Below, in pieces: positions 2,617 to 38,992 of a stretch of 39,471 nucleotides of DNA (position 1 is the first letter of the stretch; every line of letters begins with the position of its first letter). The translations under genes and the position numbers were made by a program. A model generated the notes under the pieces. It was not told where the DNA came from, ran no database searches, and saw only the letters and a list, made by a program, of their open reading frames with translations. Origin of the DNA: Escherichia phage vB_EcoM_SHAK9454; sequence record OR594184; one strand, written 5' to 3'.

Positions 2617-2809
2617 ATCTCACACTTCAAGAACCTCAAGTCTCCCCATAGGCCCTCTTTCAGTCCAGACCAAAGGCCCTACCCCTACCCGTGCCAGTCT
2701 ATCATAAGGTTGGACAGATGGTCAAGACTTAAGGTCAACGATAGGCTGAGGCTATGGCTTAGGGAAGGACGATAGGTTGGGACTATGGGTCTTCTTTGAG
2801 TCTCTATCT
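2617..2809. repeat. Direct terminal repeat, left-end copy (193 bp); genome left end
   Basis: Second tandem copy, offset exactly 193 bp from the first. Confidence 0.9.
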
Positions 2810-2960
2810 GTATAACCATAAGTCACAACCATAGGTCACAGCCTACCTCTCACAACCATAAGCCATAACCTACAGTCTCACTAACCTACAGTCTCACTAA
2901 CCTACAGTCTCAACCATAAGACACCAACACCTAAAGTCATAGACCTACAGTTAATAGACA
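2810..2960. repeat. Array of short direct repeats after the left terminal repeat
   Basis: AACCTACAGTCTCACT repeated about 3 times at 2867-2912; AACCATAAG at 2813, 2853, 2911; analogous to the T7 short repeats flanking its terminal repeat. Confidence 0.7.
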
Positions 2961-3062
2961 CAAGGCTATAGACTTAAGGTCTAAGACATGTTAGTCAAAG
3001 ACTATATCCTCTTACACCATGGGGCCGACGATAGCTTAATCAATATTATTTCAAATTACCTA

Positions 3063-3092
3063 TTGACTATAGGTCCAGACTATGGCCTAATA
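3063..3092 (+). promoter_or_regulatory. Possible host sigma70 early promoter (weak -10)
   Basis: TTGACT at 3063-3068 preceded by an AT-rich stretch; only poor -10 candidates (CCTAAT/CTAATA) 17-18 bp downstream. Confidence 0.25.
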
Positions 3093-3202
3093 GCTTCCGT
3101 CAACACGACACGGCAACAACCGGATAGTGAAGACGCCGGTCCGGTCCGGTTAAGTAGTCAGCCTGTAAGACATACGAACAACAGGCAACCGACAGAAAGT
3201 AG

Positions 3203-3232
3203 TTGACAGGCAGTAACGACTTAAAGTAATAT
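3203..3232 (+). promoter_or_regulatory. Candidate host sigma70 early promoter (A-promoter-like)
   Basis: TTGACA (3203-3208), 18-bp spacer, TAATAT (3227-3232); lies between the left terminal repeat and the first early gene. Confidence 0.45.
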
Positions 3233-3343
3233 GTACCACATCGAAACAACGGTGATGACCAACACTGAATGGTCTACCTGAAGTCCTCTGACTGAAGGGA
3301 ATGCTCTTTAACAATCTGGATAAACTCTTAATGTGCGCCGATA

Positions 3344-3400
3344 GCGACTAACTACAGGGCCTTTGAGTCTACATCTGAAGGCCCTGACTGATAGTCACTA
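3344..3400 (+). promoter_or_regulatory. RNase III-like processing hairpin (early family, copy 1)
   Basis: Imperfect hairpin GACTAACTACAGGGCC ... GGCCCTGACTGATAGTC; conserved CCTGACTGATAGTCACTAAC motif about 20 nt before the start codon. Confidence 0.45.
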
Positions 3401-3418
3401 ACTTAAAGGATGGACACT

Positions 3419-3664
3419 ATGAAACACTTAAGCACAATCACTAATCGCAATGAAGTATTCGTGAACACTAAAGGTTATGCGTGGATTCAGCTTAAAGAGA
3501 TGACAGGAGCGCGTCACCGTGTGGTAGTGCGCAAGGTATCAAGCAAGCAGTTCAGCAACTACAGCGTCGATACTGTGCGTATAGACAACGAGACATACCT
3601 GATAGACTCGCAGATAACCGTGAGTCCTACAGTGGGCGTCTCAGCTCCTTATTTCACTAACTGA
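3419..3664 (+). CDS. Hypothetical early protein (81 aa)
   Basis: ORF with AAGGA 3406-3410 eight nt before ATG 3419; the ATG at 3410 overlaps the RBS and is less likely. Confidence 0.6.
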   Translation: MKHLSTITNRNEVFVNTKGYAWIQLKEMTGARHRVVVRKVSSKQFSNYSVDTVRIDNETYLIDSQITVSPTVGVSAPYFTN

Positions 3665-3666
3665 GA

Positions 3667-3719
3667 GTGATTAACTACAGGTCGTTAGACTGATAGCGGC
3701 CTGACTGATAGTCACTAAC
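3667..3719 (+). promoter_or_regulatory. RNase III-like processing hairpin (early family, copy 2)
   Basis: AACTACAGG ... CCTGACTGATAGTCACTAAC motif upstream of the Ocr-like gene. Confidence 0.45.
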
Positions 3720-3747
3720 ACATAATTAACTTTGAGAGGATATAACT

Positions 3748-4251
3748 ATGGAACGTAATGCTAACGCATACTATGAGCTGCTGGCTACAACCGTTGAGGC
3801 ATTTATCGAGCGTATTCAGTACGACCACCTGACTCAAGATGACGACTACAGCGCTGCGCTGCATGAGGTCGTAGACGGTCAGGTTCCACACTATTACCAC
3901 GAGATTTTTACGGTGATGGCTGCTGATGGTATAGACAACGAGTTCGAAGACTCTGGGATGATACCTGAAACCAAGGACGTAACGCGTATCCTACAAGCTC
4001 GCATCTATGAGGCACTTTATAACGACGTGTCTAATAGCTTGGATGTAGTCTGGTTTGAGGATGAAGAGGCAGACGAAGAGGATGAATATTGGGTAGTTGA
4101 CGCTAAAACAGGCGCAATAATTGTGCAAGCTGTAGCTCTTGAGGTCGCTACTGCATGTGCCAATGTTAACTATGCGGCAGGTCGCCACCTGAAGGTGGAA
4201 GACATCAATGATAACGTAGTGTTCGACCCTGCGGCTGAGGACTGCGAGTGA
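3748..4251 (+). CDS. ocr: Ocr-like DNA-mimic anti-restriction protein (T7 gene 0.3-like) with a ~50-aa C-terminal extension
   Basis: VPHYYHEIFTVMAADGIDNEFEDSGMIPETKDVTRILQARIYE matches the recalled T7 Ocr core; acidic tail EDEEADEEDEYW; ORF continues ~50 codons beyond; strong RBS GAGAGGA. Confidence 0.8.
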   Translation: MERNANAYYELLATTVEAFIERIQYDHLTQDDDYSAALHEVVDGQVPHYYHEIFTVMAADGIDNEFEDSGMIPETKDVTRILQARIYEALYNDVSNSLDVVWFEDEEADEEDEYWVVDAKTGAIIVQAVALEVATACANVNYAAGRHLKVEDINDNVVFDPAAEDCE

Positions 4252-4396
4252 TGGTAACTTATGGCCTCTGCCAGCACCACGTCACTAACGCCCGGCTTAT
4301 GGTCAAGACCGGGCAGTTAGACCACGATTGGGCTATGCGTCTCTTGAAAGTGGTCTACAGGAGACGCAAGCGTATACACGACAGTTTACACGCTAA

Positions 4397-4447
4397 GTGA
4401 CAGACTACAGGTCATCAATGCTGGTGGCCTGACTGATAGTCATTAAC
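4397..4447 (+). promoter_or_regulatory. RNase III-like processing hairpin (early family, copy 3)
   Basis: AGACTACAGG ... CCTGACTGATAGTCATTAAC motif upstream of the ORF at 4464. Confidence 0.4.
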
Positions 4448-4463
4448 AACTGAGAGGGAAGAT

Positions 4464-4691
4464 ATGAACACAATCACTGGTGCCATAACCAAAGGTTTTC
4501 GAGCAATTTTCGGTGAAACGCAAGAAGTATGCACCAATCATAAATTCGTACTTTCTTGCGTAGCAGGTGACGAGTTTGACGGGTTCGATAAACTGGTGGT
4601 TTGCGACCATTGCGGACAAGAGGCTATCCAACACTCAAACGGTAAATTTGAATTAATAGACGATAGCCTTACAGAAGGAGACGGCGAGTAA
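4464..4691 (+). CDS. Hypothetical early protein (75 aa) with Cys pairs, possible zinc ribbon
   Basis: RBS GAGAGGGAAG then ATG; C-x-N-H ... C-x-x-x-x-x-x-x-x-x-x-x-x-x-x-CDHC arrangement; acidic C-terminus. Confidence 0.6.
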   Translation: MNTITGAITKGFRAIFGETQEVCTNHKFVLSCVAGDEFDGFDKLVVCDHCGQEAIQHSNGKFELIDDSLTEGDGE

Positions 4692-4823
4692 CCTAAATAA
4701 ACAGGAGAGAACCAAATCATAGCTTGACCATAACACTGACGTGATGGTACTGAGTGGTAGACGAGAGGTCATCGACTGATAGGTGGCCTCAAAGATTACC
4801 ACTTACATTGATAGGAGTTAACT

Positions 4824-4928
4824 ATGAGCACCGCAATCATCTGGACTATCTCAGGCTTCGTAGCGTGGGGAATGTTTACTCTAGTCTGCAAACTACCGGT
4901 CCTTACTCAACTGTTATGGGGCTTATGA
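4824..4928 (+). CDS. Small hydrophobic peptide (34 aa)
   Basis: AGGAG 4813-4817 six nt before ATG 4824; MSTAIIWTISGFVAWGMFTLVCKLPVLTQLLWGL; stop overlaps the next start (ATGA). Confidence 0.4.
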   Translation: MSTAIIWTISGFVAWGMFTLVCKLPVLTQLLWGL

Positions 4929-5128
4929 CTATGAGTATCGCACTATTGATAGCCATAGGCTATGGAATTATCGCCTACGTGCTGGTGAGAGACATCAACA
5001 AAGCGCGTAAAGTCTACAAATTCAAATATGTACGTCTGGGTAGCTGGACTGTACGTCAACCTAACGGACGATTCATGCGCAACTTAGCGAACGTCTGGGA
5101 TATAGCAACTCTTGGGAGCAAACTGTAA
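4925..5128 (+). CDS. Hypothetical small membrane protein (67 aa)
   Basis: ATG 4925 in frame with track ORF 4754..5128; N-terminal hydrophobic segment MTMSIALLIAIGYGIIAYVLV then basic tail; translationally coupled to neighbours. Confidence 0.5.
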   Translation: MTMSIALLIAIGYGIIAYVLVRDINKARKVYKFKYVRLGSWTVRQPNGRFMRNLANVWDIATLGSKL

Positions 5129-5454
5129 TGAACAAGTCATACGGGATTAATCTGGTACACTCTATGGACGCAGAAATGAACATGTTAAGCCTACTGGCTA
5201 CCGGGTATCGTCACGGAACGTCAAGTCACACCGCACGTCAACAGCAGGAGCGGGACCGTGTACTTCAGGCACGACTTCGGGCCGAGGGCCATAAGTACGA
5301 GCTGATGGGTCTGATATGTGGTGGACGACCAATAACCGACGATGGTAAACTTCTGGTATCAGGCTGGAAGGCGATAGACCAACGGTCATCCATCAAGCAC
5401 ACGACACATGGTGACTTCAGCCATCTTCACGCTAACCCACTGATATGCAAGTAA
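5128..5454 (+). CDS. Hypothetical early protein (108 aa) at the position where T7 has gene 0.7
   Basis: ORF whose ATG overlaps the upstream stop (TAATG); no kinase motifs seen. Confidence 0.6.
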   Translation: MNKSYGINLVHSMDAEMNMLSLLATGYRHGTSSHTARQQQERDRVLQARLRAEGHKYELMGLICGGRPITDDGKLLVSGWKAIDQRSSIKHTTHGDFSHLHANPLICK

Positions 5455-5459
5455 TTATG

Positions 5460-5482
5460 ACTTAACTATCACTATAGGACTC
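5460..5482 (+). promoter_or_regulatory. Phage RNAP promoter immediately upstream of the RNA polymerase gene
   Basis: ACTTAACTATCACTATAGGACTC, +1 G at 5477; leader 5477-5551 contains direct repeats AAGTGAAAGAC x2 and GACTTTAAGT x2. Confidence 0.75.
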
Positions 5483-5551
5483 AAGGTCTAAGACTCAAAG
5501 TGAAAGACCAAAGAGACTTTAAGTGAAAGACTAATAACAAGGACTTTAAGT

Positions 5552-8233
5552 ATGAGCGTCATCTCTATTGACAAACACGACTTCTCTGATGTGTCGAACG
5601 CCATTGAGCCGTTTAACCTGCTGGCTGACCACTACGGGCAAGACCTTGCAGTCAAACAGCTTCAGCTTGAGCATGAGGCATACACTGAAGGCGAGCGACG
5701 TTTCATCAAGAACCTTGAGCGGCAGACTGAGCGCGGGGAACTGGCAGACAATCAGGTCGCCAAGCCTTTGATGCAGACTCTGGTCCCTAAGATTGCGCAA
5801 GCCGTCAGGGAGTGGCACGAAGGCCAAGACGGGAAGCTGTCAACCTCTCGTCCGAGTGTAGCGTTCACCATGTTGAGCACTGAAGAGAAGGCCGTAAAGG
5901 AACGATCTCTGCGCATCTCCTGTGAGTCTGCTGCGGTTATCGTACTGAAGGTCATACTCTCCAAGCTGGTCAAGCCTGAAGGGATCCCGATTACACCTAT
6001 GGCCTCAGCGATAGGTCGCACACTTGAGGACGAAATCCGCTTCGGTCGCATCCGTGACAAAGAGAAAGAGCACTTCAAGAAGGCGATAGCTGATAACCTG
6101 AATAAGCGGGCCGGGGCGTCATATAAGAAAGCCTACATGCAAGCGGTCGAGGCGTCCATGCTGGAGCAAGGCCAACTGGAAGATGCGTGGGGGACTTGGA
6201 GTCCTACAGAGGCCGTCCACGTTGGCATCAAGATGCTCGAGATTGTCATCCAGTCAACACAACTGGTCGAGCTTAAGCGGTACGGTGCTGGTAATGCAGC
6301 GGCTGACGTAGAGATGGTCCACCTGTCAGACTTCTGGGTCAAGAAGATGGCACAACGAGGATTCAGCCTTGCGGGTATCGCCCCAGTCTACCAGCCTTGC
6401 GTCGTCCCACCTAAGCCGTGGACTGGTGTCGTAGGTGGTGGGTACTGGGCCAAAGGTCGCAGACCGTTACCATTGATTCGCTTAGGGTCTAAGTCTGCGG
6501 TAGCACGTTATGAAGACGTATACATGCCTGAAGTCTATGACGCTGTGAATATCATCCAGAATACACCTTGGAAAGTGAACAAGAAGGTATTGGACGTGGT
6601 GAACATGGTCGAGAAGCTGAACAACACGCCTATTGATGACATCCCTCAGATGGAACCGCTGAAGCCTGAGGACTATGCTGGTGAAACCGAGGAGGAACTC
6701 AAGGCATGGAAGAAGGCTGCTGCTGGTATCTATCGCCGCGAGAAGGCCAGACAGTCACGCAGATTATCGCTGAACTTTATCGTTAACCAAGCAAACAAGT
6801 TCTCTCAGTTCAAGGCCATCTGGTTCCCGTACAACATGGATTGGCGAGGTCGTGTCTACGCTGTGCCGATGTTCAACCCTCAGGGTAACGACATGCAAAA
6901 GGGTCTTCTGACTCTGGCAGTCGGTAAGCCTATTGGTGCTGATGGTTTCAAATGGCTGAAGGTTCACGGTGCAAACTGCGCGGGTGTCGATAAAGTCACC
7001 TTCGAGGAGCGTATCAAGTGGGTGGAAGATAACCACGACAACATCATGGCTGCTGCCAAGGCACCGATGGATAGCATTGAGTGGTGGGGCAAGTTAGACT
7101 CTCCGTTCTGCTTCCTAGCGTTCTGCTTCGAGTATGCTGGCGTAATGCACCACGGCTTGTCTTACTCCTGCTCGCTGCCGATAGCGTTCGATGGGTCCTG
7201 CTCTGGGATTCAGCACTTCAGCGCTATGCTTCGTGACCACATCGGTGGACATGCAGTAAACCTGACGCCATCCGGTAAGGTCCAAGACATCTACCGCATT
7301 GTGTCTGACCGCATTGAGGAGCAGCTTAAAGTACTGCTGATTAACGGCACTGACAACGAGATGGTCACTCACGAGGATAAGAAAACTGGTGAGATTACCG
7401 AACGTATCAAGCTGGGGACACGAGAGCTGGCCCGTCAGTGGCTGACATACGGTATGTCACGCAAGGTCACTAAGCGTTCAGTCATGACTCTGGCATACGG
7501 GTCGAAAGAGTACGGCTTCGCAGACCAAGTTTACGAGGACATCGTGATGCCAGCGATTGACTCAGGGTCTGGCGCTATGTTCACTGAACCAAGCCAAGCG
7601 TCTCGCTTCATGGCAAAGATGATTTGGGAAGCTGTGAGTGTGACAGTAGTTGCTGCGGTTGACGCGATGAAGTGGCTTCAAGGTGCTGCCAAGCTGCTGG
7701 CTGCTGAAGTGAAGGACAAGAAGACTGGAGAAATCCTGAAGCCTTGCCTTCCGGTACACTGGGTCACACCTGATGGTTTCCCTGTCTGGCAGGAATACCG
7801 CAAGAAGGACACCACTCGTCTGAACCTGATGTTCTTAGGGTCATTCAACCTTCAGCCTACCGTCAACAAAGGCACGAAGAAAGAGCTGGACAAGCACAAG
7901 CAGGAGTCAGGCATTAGCCCGAACTTCGTCCACTCACAAGATGGTAGCCACCTCCGCAAGACTGTAGTCCACACTCACCGAAAGTATGGCGTGATGTCAT
8001 TCGCAGTGATTCACGATAGCTTCGGGACCATCCCGGCTGACGCTGAGTATCTGTTCCGTGGAGTCCGTGAGACGATGGTAGAGACTTACCGCGATAACGA
8101 TGTGCTGCTTGACTTCTACGAGCAGTTTGAATACCAGCTTCACGAGAGCCAGCGCGACAAGTTGCCTGAGCTTCCGAAGAAAGGTAAACTGAATATCGAA
8201 GACATCTTGTCTTCAGACTTTGCATTCGCTTAA
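5552..8233 (+). CDS. Single-subunit DNA-dependent RNA polymerase (T7 gene 1-like)
   Basis: 893 aa; DGSCSGIQHFSAMLRD (motif A), HDSFGT (motif C), C-terminal DFAFA, specificity-loop region TRLNLMFLGSFNLQP. Confidence 0.98.
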   Translation: MSVISIDKHDFSDVSNAIEPFNLLADHYGQDLAVKQLQLEHEAYTEGERRFIKNLERQTERGELADNQVAKPLMQTLVPKIAQAVREWHEGQDGKLSTSRPSVAFTMLSTEEKAVKERSLRISCESAAVIVLKVILSKLVKPEGIPITPMASAIGRTLEDEIRFGRIRDKEKEHFKKAIADNLNKRAGASYKKAYMQAVEASMLEQGQLEDAWGTWSPTEAVHVGIKMLEIVIQSTQLVELKRYGAGNAAADVEMVHLSDFWVKKMAQRGFSLAGIAPVYQPCVVPPKPWTGVVGGGYWAKGRRPLPLIRLGSKSAVARYEDVYMPEVYDAVNIIQNTPWKVNKKVLDVVNMVEKLNNTPIDDIPQMEPLKPEDYAGETEEELKAWKKAAAGIYRREKARQSRRLSLNFIVNQANKFSQFKAIWFPYNMDWRGRVYAVPMFNPQGNDMQKGLLTLAVGKPIGADGFKWLKVHGANCAGVDKVTFEERIKWVEDNHDNIMAAAKAPMDSIEWWGKLDSPFCFLAFCFEYAGVMHHGLSYSCSLPIAFDGSCSGIQHFSAMLRDHIGGHAVNLTPSGKVQDIYRIVSDRIEEQLKVLLINGTDNEMVTHEDKKTGEITERIKLGTRELARQWLTYGMSRKVTKRSVMTLAYGSKEYGFADQVYEDIVMPAIDSGSGAMFTEPSQASRFMAKMIWEAVSVTVVAAVDAMKWLQGAAKLLAAEVKDKKTGEILKPCLPVHWVTPDGFPVWQEYRKKDTTRLNLMFLGSFNLQPTVNKGTKKELDKHKQESGISPNFVHSQDGSHLRKTVVHTHRKYGVMSFAVIHDSFGTIPADAEYLFRGVRETMVETYRDNDVLLDFYEQFEYQLHESQRDKLPELPKKGKLNIEDILSSDFAFA

Positions 8234-8780: not shown

Positions 8781-8803
8781 CCTAAACTATCACTATAGGA
8801 TTA
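8781..8803 (+). promoter_or_regulatory. Phage RNAP promoter (phi1.1-like)
   Basis: CCTAAACTATCACTATAGGATTAG, +1 G at 8798. Confidence 0.8.
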
Positions 8804-8846
8804 GACTCAAGGTCATGACTCAAAGTCGTGGCCTTCATGATTAACC
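8801..8846 (+). promoter_or_regulatory. RNase III-like hairpin (late family, R1.1-like position)
   Basis: TAGACTCAAGGTCAT ... GTGGCCTTCATGATTAAC; 8-bp stem AAGGTCAT/GTGGCCTT with G-U pairs; same motif at 16014 and 38895. Confidence 0.5.
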
Positions 8847-8873
8847 CTAACTCATTCAATCAGGAGCTACACC

Positions 8874-10363: not shown

Positions 10364-10373
10364 CTAAACGTCA

Positions 10374-10411
10374 ACCCAGTGGTCTTCGGACTGCTGGGTT
10401 TCTTTGCTTTG
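10374..10411 (+). terminator. Early transcription terminator (TE-like), intrinsic
   Basis: Hairpin ACCCAGTGG-tcttcgga-CTGCTGGGTT followed by TTTCTTTGCTTTG, directly after the ligase gene as in T7. Confidence 0.6.
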
Positions 10412-10820: not shown

Positions 10821-11294
10821 ATGAACGCACTTGAACAAGAGATTATCATTAAGTTGGTAGATAATAACGAAGGTCGCCCAGATGATTTGAATGGCTGCAG
10901 TATTTTCTGCCATACTGTCCCTTGCTTCCTCTGCCCTGTAAATATCAATGAAAAGATAACCTTAGGTGAAATCCGAGCGATGGACATACGTAAGCCTAAA
11001 CTGGAGAAACCAGAGGTAACTCCTACAGATGACCAACCTTCAACTGAGTCAATCGACGCTGTCCGCAAGCCGTCCCACTATCAGGTATTTGACGGAGTGG
11101 AGTCCATTGAGATTATCGCTCGGTCCATGACTGTCAGCGAGTTCCGTGGGTTCTGCATGGGTAACGTCCTGAAGTATCGACTCCGAGCTGGTAAGAAGTC
11201 AGAGCTGGCGACTATGGAGAAGGACCTGAACAAAGCAGCCTTCTATCAGGAGCTGTTCGACCTACATAAAGGTAAGTGCTATGCTTCCGAGTGA
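10821..11294 (+). CDS. T7 gene 1.7-like protein (nucleotide kinase family), apparently lacking the usual N-terminal segment
   Basis: EIIIKLVDNNEGRPDDLNGC...RAGKKSELA resembles recalled T7 gp1.7; AAGGAG RBS; frame is closed 5 codons upstream of the ATG. Confidence 0.6.
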   Translation: MNALEQEIIIKLVDNNEGRPDDLNGCSIFCHTVPCFLCPVNINEKITLGEIRAMDIRKPKLEKPEVTPTDDQPSTESIDAVRKPSHYQVFDGVESIEIIARSMTVSEFRGFCMGNVLKYRLRAGKKSELATMEKDLNKAAFYQELFDLHKGKCYASE

Positions 11295-11372
11295 GTGGTG
11301 CGAGCGTAAATTTGAGGAGACAGGTAACGTCGATTACCTTCAGCTCTACAACTTATGGAAGGAGCGTGGTCT

Positions 11373-11531
11373 ATGACTGACGTAGAGAAGAAATACATCG
11401 TGGAACTTGAGGGACGTACCCAGTCCTTCGAGGTTCCGTTGTACGCAAAGTCTCTTGAAGAGGCTACCCTGAAGTCCCAAGAGTATGAGGACGCTGGGTT
11501 TGTGGTCGGACGGATTCGCCCTGAGACCTAA
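11373..11531 (+). CDS. Host RNA polymerase inhibitor (T7 gene 2-like), 52 aa
   Basis: GGAAGGAG then ATG 11373; [14 protein letters not shown]...[10 protein letters not shown] matches recalled T7 Gp2 SFEVPIYAETLDEA...AGFEVTRVRP; below the track cutoff. Confidence 0.75.
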
Positions 11532-13173: not shown

Positions 13174-13625
13174 TGACTCGTAAAGCAATCATCGTTGACC
13201 TGATGGATGGTGATGCACATTCAGACAACTACAAGGCAGGACAGGAGGTCTTCGTTAAGTTCTACCATAAGTCACTCAACCCTAGTGATGGAGACCTGTG
13301 GCAGGTGTCGCATGATGGTGTCAAGTGGCTGGCCTCAATGTATGGTCGCCGCCTGAAGTTTATAGATGCTGGTGATAAACCTCAAGTCCTGCCAGCCTCA
13401 AGCGTCCCTCCTGTCACCGTTAAACGTGAAGTCCTGACCATCAACAAGATTGGTGTAGGCCAGACGTTCATCGTCCATGGAAAGCCTGAAGAAGTTTACG
13501 TGAAGATTAGCAACTCACACGTCTTCAACCATAAGCATCTCCAGATGCACACCACGGACGCACAACGCTTCACCCAGCACCTGAATCTGGTGGTCGTAGA
13601 ATTGGTGGTGTACAATGGTAAGTAA
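13173..13625 (+). CDS. Hypothetical protein (150 aa) inserted between endonuclease I and lysozyme
   Basis: AGGAG 13161-13165 then ATG 13173 overlapping the endonuclease I stop (TGATG); no recognised motif. Confidence 0.65.
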   Translation: MTRKAIIVDLMDGDAHSDNYKAGQEVFVKFYHKSLNPSDGDLWQVSHDGVKWLASMYGRRLKFIDAGDKPQVLPASSVPPVTVKREVLTINKIGVGQTFIVHGKPEEVYVKISNSHVFNHKHLQMHTTDAQRFTQHLNLVVVELVVYNGK

Positions 13626-14073
13626 GGTACAGTTCAATCCACGGTCCCGGACCGACGCTATCTTCGTTCACTGTTCGGCTACCAAGCCAGAGATGGACAT
13701 CGGGGTAGAGACCATCCGTATGTGGCACAAGCAGCAAGGCTGGCTGGACGTAGGCTACCACTTTATCATCAAGCGCGATGGTACTGTGGAAGAGGGACGC
13801 CCGGTCAATGTCGTAGGGTCACACGTTAAGGACTGGAACTCACGGTCTGTAGGCGTCTGCCTTGTAGGTGGAATTGACGCTAAGGGCAAGTTTGAAGCTA
13901 ACTTCACTCCGGCCCAGATGAACTCCCTGCGCAACAAGCTGGCTGACCTGAAGGTCATGTATCCTCAGGCAGAAATCAAAGCACATCATGACGTAGCACC
14001 AAAGGCGTGTCCAAGTTTCGACTTGCAACGCTGGCTGTCTACCAATGAACTGGTCACTTCCGACCGAGGCTAA
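13615..14073 (+). CDS. Lysozyme, N-acetylmuramoyl-L-alanine amidase (T7 gene 3.5-like)
   Basis: TDAIFVHCSATKP...GWLDVGYHFIIKRDGTVE...HH.VAPKACPSFDL.RW...ELVTSDRG, near-identical blocks to recalled T7 lysozyme. Confidence 0.95.
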   Translation: MVSKVQFNPRSRTDAIFVHCSATKPEMDIGVETIRMWHKQQGWLDVGYHFIIKRDGTVEEGRPVNVVGSHVKDWNSRSVGVCLVGGIDAKGKFEANFTPAQMNSLRNKLADLKVMYPQAEIKAHHDVAPKACPSFDLQRWLSTNELVTSDRG

Positions 14074-14091
14074 ACTATCACCTTAGAGATG
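14069..14091 (+). promoter_or_regulatory. Divergent phage-promoter-like element followed by a small hairpin
   Basis: TAAACTATCACCTTAGAG shares -17 to -5 with the consensus but differs at -4 to +1; GGGACC-ttag-GGTCCC hairpin at 14091-14106. Confidence 0.35.
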
Positions 14092-14134
14092 GGACCTTAG
14101 GGTCCCTTTGTGCGCATTATTGATTAAGGAGTGA

Positions 14135-15838
<1,704 letters not shown>

Positions 15839-15849
15839 GGAGGGGTACA

Positions 15850-16014
15850 TTGCTAAGAAAACTTAAAGCTCGCTACCATCGGTTCATGTACAAATGGTGG
15901 AGCGATGAAGCAACCTTCCTGTCCAACATTCTGGGAGACCAGAGGTTCAACTCTAAGGCATGGAAGAAAGCTAACCGGAAGTTTATGTACCACTTCTTGC
16001 GTACAGACTTCTAG
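15850..16014 (+). CDS. Small basic hypothetical protein (54 aa, TTG start)
   Basis: AGGAGG 15838-15843 six nt before TTG 15850; the track's longer ORF from 15817 overlaps the helicase 3' end. Confidence 0.35.
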   Translation: MLRKLKARYHRFMYKWWSDEATFLSNILGDQRFNSKAWKKANRKFMYHFLRTDF

Positions 16015-16060
16015 GTCTAGACTCAAGGTCATTCACAGCGAGTGGCCTTTATGATTAGAC
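16014..16060 (+). promoter_or_regulatory. RNase III-like hairpin (late family, R4.7-like position)
   Basis: TAGACTCAAGGTCAT ... GTGGCCTTTATGATTAGAC. Confidence 0.5.
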
Positions 16061-16082
16061 TTATAACTAAAGGAGAAGCAAT

Positions 16083-20105: not shown

Positions 20106-20157
20106 GTCTAGCCGATAGTCATATCCTATCAATCCAACAGTCATCCATAGGTGAAAC

Positions 20158-38631: not shown

Positions 38632-38891
38632 CGCAGATGGACTTAGAGAAGTTCCTCTTGATGCTTGATACTGAGCGTGCTCGACTTATGCTGCAAGACT
38701 TGCGGGATGACACTAAGCGTTCACCTCAGCTCTACAACGCCATTGAGAAGCTGCTTGCTCGTCACAACTTTGTGATAAGCAAGGTGTCTGTTGACGAGAA
38801 GACGCTGGCTGATATGGAGGCCCTGAACGCAGAGTACGATAAGGTGCTTTCAGCGACTGAGGATAATGACACCGGGTATGGCGTTCAATAA
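38628..38891 (+). CDS. Terminase small subunit (T7 gene 18-like)
   Basis: 87 aa; ATG overlaps the holin stop; position before Rz and the terminase large subunit. Confidence 0.88.
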   Translation: MTQMDLEKFLLMLDTERARLMLQDLRDDTKRSPQLYNAIEKLLARHNFVISKVSVDEKTLADMEALNAEYDKVLSATEDNDTGYGVQ

Positions 38892-38894
38892 GTG

Positions 38895-38940
38895 TTAGAC
38901 TCAAGGTCATTACTGTATGTAGTGGCCTTTATGGTTAACA
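38895..38940 (+). promoter_or_regulatory. RNase III-like hairpin (late family, R18.5-like position)
   Basis: TAGACTCAAGGTCAT ... GTGGCCTTTATGGTTAAC. Confidence 0.5.
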
Positions 38941-38992
38941 CTAACTAGTGGAGGAGACTCTACGTGCAATCTGATAAACCGGGAGGGCAACT

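Follow-up and report, generated by a model that had tools for sequence, protein, structure and literature searches.

In T7 the textbook rule is that the polymerase gene, gene 1, is read only by the host enzyme, and a phage promoter placed directly before a T7-type polymerase gene raises the question of whether such an enzyme may transcribe its own gene. A promoter of this kind is found in Escherichia phage vB_EcoM_SHAK9454 (sequence record OR594184), of which we analyzed one strand of 39,471 nucleotides, 5' to 3', referred to here as the window. The initial annotation of this sequence set the arrangement against T7, stating that T7 gene 1 is transcribed only by host RNA polymerase. This is too strong, as T7 has a phage promoter, phiOL, at 405, upstream of its whole early region, and T7 polymerase is therefore not strictly barred from reading gene 1.

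The 3.6 kb around the gene 1 promoter are 96-98% identical to many Escherichia, Salmonella and Citrobacter phages of Kayfunavirus (K1F-like, Studiervirinae). The window contains a 193-bp terminal repeat in two tandem copies that are 100% identical (2424-2616 and 2617-2809), so that the record is a permuted, concatemer-junction form of a linear genome whose true left end lies near 2617. On this true genome map no other phage promoter lies to the left of the one before gene 1. Positions 2810-2960, immediately inside the left terminal repeat, hold short direct repeats (TCACAACCATARG and CTCACTAACCTACAGT units) like the left-end repeat arrays of T7-like genomes. The early region is of the K1F type and has no ORF of the size of the gene 0.7 kinase; a protein kinase is annotated in GW1. 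A strong terminator-like hairpin (10373-10400) lies after a ligase-sized ORF and corresponds to the early terminator that EcoDS1 has annotated as TE. The features that surround the start of gene 1 are:

5128-5454, + strand: upstream early ORF of 108 aa, in the slot of gp0.38 in K1F and EcoDS1, with its stop 6 nt before the promoter
5460-5482, + strand: phage single-subunit RNA polymerase promoter ACTTAACTATCACTATAGGACTC, spanning -17 to +6
5477-5551, + strand: 75-nt leader of the gene 1 transcript from the phage promoter, A-rich with little structure, made up of six RGAC units of about 14 nt
5552-8233, + strand: gene 1, encoding a T7-type single-subunit RNA polymerase of 893 aa (PF00940, 1.5e-106; PF14700)

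The promoter lies on the coding strand, in the intergenic gap after the TAA stop (5452-5454) of the upstream ORF, a protein for which no Pfam family was found, and it matches the 23-bp consensus that the genome itself carries in multiple copies. By T7 numbering the predicted start is G5477, which places +1 75 nt before the gene 1 ATG at 5552. The sequence TTAACTATCACTATAGGA (5462-5479) belongs to a set of 10 same-strand matches that have up to three mismatches, compared with 0.03 expected by chance, and the 14-nt core ACTATCACTATAGG is exact at this site, as it is in 7 of the 11 core matches of the window. Its leave-one-out log-odds score of 31.4 bits falls within the 29-35 bits spanned by the ten good sites. 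The near-consensus phage promoter 75 nt before the polymerase start, as initially described, is thus borne out. The GGA with which it starts is shared by the early and middle promoters (8798, 10464 and 11544), while the promoters before the head and tail genes start with GGG. No terminator-like site was found on the + strand between 5477 and 8233, that is, from the promoter through gene 1. A sigma-70-like match on the minus strand (5498-5471, 9/12) was rejected as being at chance level, with 11 such sites found and 10.7 expected. Elsewhere in the window, a weak promoter-like site, ACTATCACCTTAGAG at 14072-14094 (+1 near 14086), scores 15 bits against the 29-35 bits of the other sites; it precedes a primase/helicase-sized ORF (14138-15838), and its homologue in EcoDS1 is annotated as 'phi' (11107-11129).

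Comparison with related phage genomes, proposed at the outset as a check on the promoter, shows it kept in all Kayfunavirus-type relatives examined and changing with polymerase specificity. The site is identical or cognate in K1F, EcoDS1, CR44b, GW1, EcpYZU01 and L070 (IMG/VR 2700988933; polymerase 79% identical), and in all Kayfunavirus-type sequences examined, including IMG/VR contigs, it lies about 90-97 nt before the gene 1 ATG. In both the window and K1F the promoters read ACTATCACTATAGG and the gene 1 product carries the specificity-loop motif RLNLMFLGSFNLQ. GW1 (a Cronobacter phage) and EcpYZU01 (an Enterobacter phage), which belong to the same genus, have a T3-like ACCCTCACTATAGG at all promoters, the gene 1 site included, and their polymerases have the T3-like specificity loop RLDLMFLGTFRLQ with D748 and R756 (T7 positions). 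Among the relatives positions -12 to -7 read ACTATC with N748/N756 and ACCCTC with D748/R756, again with the gene 1 sites included. L070 provides a third motif, AAGGAAGGTACACTATAGG, present once before gene 1 and in four other copies in the locus. Polymerase loops were compared for two of these three specificities, the ACTATCACTATAGG and ACCCTCACTATAGG groups, while L070 was assigned from its promoter motif. The site before gene 1 therefore tracks the promoter motif of its genome through three specificities, with the accompanying change in the polymerase loop seen for two, which indicates that it is under selection as a promoter. This co-variation with polymerase specificity is the strongest evidence for a working promoter. 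One clade with three promoter specificities (ACTATCACTATAGG, ACCCTCACTATAGG and AAGGAAGGTACACTATAGG) is also a compact natural series for the study of polymerase-promoter co-evolution.

The same data bear on whether the site could be a functionless match to the promoter consensus, arisen by chance or left as a fossil. Only 0.03 matches per genome are expected, and the site has been kept through two changes of promoter specificity and is present in all relatives examined; the co-variation effectively refutes this reading, and we give it almost no credence. We consider it likely that in the Kayfunavirus (K1F-like) group this element acts as the gene-1-proximal promoter, functional with and cognate to the T7-type RNA polymerase that the phage itself encodes.

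We also carried out a motif-free survey of 80 IMG/VR loci, in which 16-mers within 170 nt upstream of gene 1 were sought that recur in the locus with up to two mismatches. The promoter was recovered in 19 of 19 loci with a polymerase identity of at least 79%. Among the 61 loci with 58-64% polymerase identity (T7-, T3-, Berlin- and K11-like), no 16-mer in the 170 nt upstream had over two other copies; the few 16-mers with one or two further copies were of ribosome-binding-site type or were isolated coding matches. In the curated records of T7, T3, K11 and BA14 phiOL is placed close to the left end and gene 1 has no phage promoter immediately before it, while no phiOL-type promoter was found between the left end and gene 1 in the window (2617-5460), K1F, EcoDS1, GW1 or EcpYZU01. 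In the sample examined the arrangement is thus confined to the Kayfunavirus clade and one related contig, and the Kayfunavirus genomes that were checked are without phiOL. Within the clade there is a subgroup (L016-L021, L033, L038 and L041) in which the gene 1 promoter alone reads CACTAAAGG, with A at -2; most of the other promoters listed for these contigs read CACTATAGG and a few CACTTTAGG or CACTGTAGG. In this subgroup the gene 1 promoter may be weaker, and perhaps deliberately weakened.

The distribution of phiOL allows for another reason for keeping the promoter, namely a job at the level of DNA, either as a stand-in for phiOL, through which the phage polymerase would take over genome internalization early, or as a T7-style replication origin, in which a phage promoter precedes an A/T-rich region, with autoregulation of gene 1 as a by-product. 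The K1F-like genomes are without phiOL and have the gene 1 promoter as their leftmost phage promoter, and T7, T3, K11 and BA14 show the reverse, with phiOL present and the gene 1 promoter absent. The leader, at 44% A, is the most A-rich 75 nt of the genome, its A+T content of 64% lies at the 98th percentile, and it resembles the region from phi1.1B to the gene 1.1 leader of T7. That T7 region lies in the primary origin of T7, and the T3 record puts the primary origin just after phi1.05. The comparison is weakened by the single GTC, the core of the T7 primase site, on the + strand of the leader, and by other promoter leaders that are equally or more A+T-rich, for example 71% at 20154. The leader moreover ends in the conserved ribosome-binding site of gene 1, which means that it is at least also an mRNA leader. 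Taken together we think it improbable that the promoter is kept mainly for a role of this kind.

Returning to the reading as a promoter for the phage's own polymerase, a cognate promoter directly before gene 1 with no terminator between them makes self-amplification of polymerase transcription a natural inference, and the locus has the layout of an autogenous polymerase gene: a cognate upstream promoter, a 75-nt leader and no intervening terminator. Positive autoregulation would be a likely consequence of this layout. We infer that early in infection host RNA polymerase would start at left-end sigma-70 promoters, for which there are candidates near 3060-3232, and would read through gene 1 as far as the early terminator (10373-10400). 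The first molecules of phage polymerase would then initiate at G5477, and their transcripts would cover gene 1 together with the genes that follow it. Once the gp2 homologue (11355-11531; PF16857) had shut down host transcription, the production of gene 1 mRNA from G5477 would continue, closing a positive feedback loop in which initiation by the phage polymerase frees the polymerase mRNA from dependence on host transcription. By analogy with T7 the gp3.5 lysozyme homologue (13615-14073; Amidase_2) would damp the loop. T7 lysozyme preferentially inhibits the weaker, class-II-type promoters, and as the gene 1 promoter has the GGA start of the class-II group, it would be expected to be sensitive to lysozyme.

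The conservation of the promoter shows selection for a promoter, and not that it was selected for a raised polymerase output. Maintaining synthetic T7 autogenes is difficult, and T7 variants in which T7 promoters precede gene 1 are reported not to have grown faster, so a benefit from feedback is not self-evident. The K1F specificity loop and the K1F consensus at -12 to -7 form an active orthogonal pair in E. coli in vivo (PMC3458549). A literature search for transcript mapping in K1F or Kayfunavirus found nothing relevant.

The transcript that would start at G5477 begins with a leader of unusual composition, within which the following direct repeats are found:

5498-5508, + strand: direct repeat AAGTGAAAGAC, copy 1, with only two copies in the window
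5521-5531, + strand: direct repeat AAGTGAAAGAC, copy 2
5515-5524, + strand: direct repeat GACTTTAAGT, copy 1, nearly a palindrome, with complementarity to the RNase III-type 5' box of the leader
5542-5551, + strand: direct repeat GACTTTAAGT, copy 2, forming the spacer between the Shine-Dalgarno sequence AAGGA (5539-5543) and the ATG

Both of the repeat pairs recorded in the initial annotation exist, and they exceed chance: the seven repeated 8-mers of the leader were reached by 0 of 5000 dinucleotide shuffles and the 11-nt repeat by 31 of 5000, while GACTTTAAGT, like AAGTGAAAGAC, has just its two copies (5515 and 5542) in the whole window. The repeats are, however, better described as six units of about 14 nt than as two pairs. 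The units start at 5477, 5491, 5505, 5514, 5528 and 5541, each begins with RGAC and each resembles AGACTCAAGGTC; the leader is the sole place in the genome with six RGAC. The periodic AGAC/ACTYWAAG pattern is kept in five leader types that otherwise differ, and a six-fold RGAC periodicity of about 14 nt is also seen in the leaders of L017, L029 (GW1), L030 (EcpYZU01) and L070, across three promoter specificities. Within the clade examined no leader type was found without its cognate promoter, though the promoter specificity differs between types.

The last unit contains the conserved ribosome-binding site for gene 1, and GGACTTTAAGTATG at the gene 1 initiation region is identical to the start region of T7 gene 1.1. 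The leader also contains ACUUUA, which we take to recall the 'epsilon' translational enhancer of T7 gene 10. No structure or known binding motif was found to explain the periodicity of the array. An Rfam scan of 5300-5700 gave only sub-threshold snoRNA noise, and a reading as CsrA- or Hfq-type motifs was rejected, as the leader has just two GGA motifs and lacks regularly phased A-R-N.

The initial annotation had further proposed that promoter and leader are a duplicate of a promoter and processing-site module at 8781. This requires a comparison with the RNase III sites of the T7 group, which are defined here as hairpins whose conserved upper stem is AAGGUC...GGCCUU and whose lower stem is UAA/UUA, scored jointly for sequence and structure. 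The features concerned are:

5479-5488, + strand: ACTCAAGGTC, the 5' half-box of T7-group RNase III sites, with the matching 3' half absent
8781-8849, + strand: comparison element, consisting of a phi1.1-type promoter (8781-8803, +1 at 8798) and an RNase III hairpin (8796-8849)
3342-3400, 3665-3717, 4395-4445, 4752-4804, 8796-8849, 16012-16063 and 38890-38943, + strand: canonical RNase III-type hairpins found with the covariance model

The resemblance between the two leaders is real. The leader sequence CTCAAGGTCTAAGACTCAAAGT aligns to CTCAAGGTC-ATGACTCAAAGT of the 8798 leader with 20 of 22 positions identical, which is the best of 55 pairs of promoter-downstream sequences and was reached by 0 of 2000 shuffles. 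A second shared 10-mer, GACTCAAAGT, varies in the relatives, being ACTACAAGT in K1F and ACTCCAAGT in most, so that the conserved block common to the gene 1 and 8798 leaders is GACTCAAGGTC only. The half-box ACTCAAGGTC has four copies on the + strand, and the other three (8805, 16021 and 38899) all lie within canonical hairpins.

The hairpin was sought with a covariance model built from 28 aligned canonical T7-group sites, with compensatory changes in 11 of 16 pairs. With filters off it finds seven sites in the window at 29-66 bits, among them the hairpin at 8796-8849 (60.5 bits; fold z = -2.5), a canonical homologue of R1.1. Four of the seven hairpins lie in the early region, and that at 4752-4804 was outside the training set; it overlaps the GTG start of the ORF at 4754-5128, which suggests that this start may be miscalled. 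In the gene 1 leader the model gave no hit at E <= 10 with filters off, and the GGCCTTTATGATT (GGCCTT) 3' half of the site is absent. The leader folds no better than its shuffles (z = -0.05). RNAalifold of 12 leader variants gave a sole helix of 9 pairs, which joins the 5' box to the ribosome-binding region and shows no compensatory change, and the pairing of the 5' box with copy 1 of GACTTTAAGT, or of copy 1 with copy 2, gave pair counts no better than shuffles. A nested helix (unit 1 with unit 6 and unit 2 with unit 4) was rejected, as pairing is not kept at the positions of unit 2 that vary in K1F, EcoDS1 and GW1.

At 8781-8849 lies a true homologue of T7 phi1.1A and R1.1, with which the gene 1 leader shares the front half only. 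Of the proposed duplicated module the promoter and the 5' half-box ACTCAAGGTC are present, while the GGCCTTTATGATT half, the hairpin and the model hit are not. This weighs on the wider reading in which the locus is a duplicated promoter and RNase III module as at 8781-8849, and an RNase III cut or a non-canonical helix sets the 5' end of the gene 1 mRNA and its stability or translation. It has on its side the ACTCAAGGTC box and the 20 of 22 nt common to the leader and the 8798 leader, the RNase III site R1 that T7, T3 and BA14 carry at exactly this place before gene 1, and the pairing of ACUCAAGGUC in 9 of 10 positions with either copy of GACUUUAAGU. Set against these are the 28-site model, which places none of its seven window sites in the leader, the missing GGCCTT half, the fold z of the leader and candidate helices of only -3.7 to -4.8 kcal/mol, in which covariation is not beyond that of shuffles. 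A canonical RNase III site in the leader is excluded, a non-canonical site may exist, and the reading as a whole we hold to be rather unlikely.

We think it most likely that the leader has a part in translation initiation or in the handling of the mRNA, and not in canonical RNase III processing. The RGAC units resemble the RNase III 5' half-box repeated in tandem, and a more speculative reading, which we put forward with little confidence, is that the RGAC/ACUYWAAGU array of six units is a dedicated control element on the self-transcribed polymerase mRNA that sets the extent of feedback, be it as a factor-binding array, a set of weak helices or part of an origin. A phage or host factor might bind to the array; the array might form alternative weak helices, the first copy of GACUUUAAGU being a decoy that keeps the copy at the ribosome-binding site open; or it might provide the A-rich stretch of a replication origin primed from the promoter.

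As a discovery the promoter carries little weight, since public records from this genus already carry it as an annotation and the idea of autoregulation has been published for other T7-like phages. Its interest lies rather in that the textbook T7 rule is not valid across the whole subfamily, and in the use of the K1F-type polymerase and promoter as orthogonal parts, for which a natural autogene with its native leader is a design reference.

The closest counterparts are in the same genus, where the arrangement is already known from EcoDS1 and CR44b. In EcoDS1 (NC_011042) a 'promoter phi' is annotated at 2244-2266, before gene 1 at 2336, and in Citrobacter phage CR44b (HG818823) a 'predicted promoter' is annotated at 1814-1836, before gene 1. 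Both have the identical 14-nt core in the same position with 75 nt from +1 to the ATG, and the leader in the window is near-identical to that of EcoDS1 and apparently identical to that of CR44b. There is no substantive difference, and the window represents another isolate. More distant counterparts are found in other genera, with promoter sequences unrelated to those of the window. In Pseudomonas phage gh-1 (NC_004665, 939-961) a 'phi1' is annotated before the polymerase gene, but in this phage the promoter has an annotated RNase III site and minor terminator beside it. In Vibrio phage phiA318 a phage-specific promoter (phi-A8) lies upstream of the kinase and polymerase genes and suggests autoregulation (PMC4099482), the difference being that the kinase gene, too, lies behind the promoter. 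In Pseudomonas phage LUZ100 a phi1 upstream of the polymerase was found by ONT-cappable-seq and a positive feedback loop was drawn (PMC10134795), although there the promoter is tied to a proposed MarR-type lysogeny switch.

T7 and T3 provide two further points of comparison. In phi1.1A/phi1.1B with R1.1 of T7, and in phi1.1 with R1.1 of T3, a phage promoter is followed immediately by the ACTCAAGGTC box, as in the gene 1 leader of the window; that module, however, lies after gene 1 and has a canonical hairpin backed by covariation, whereas the leader has the 5' half-box only. The slot before gene 1, at the same genomic position, is occupied in T7 and T3 by the RNase III site R1 and the minor E. 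coli promoter C. T7 and T3 thus have a canonical hairpin and no phage promoter in this slot, and the window has the reverse.

The circuit topology at this locus is that of the synthetic T7 autogene, in which a T7 promoter drives T7 gene 1. The original bacterial construct of this kind is reportedly that of Dubendorff and Studier in 1991. The concept has been used in PMC1500874 and PMC6395690. In contrast to the synthetic autogene, the circuit proposed for the window is a natural one, which would be primed by host read-through and would operate within a lytic program that includes a lysozyme-type inhibitor.
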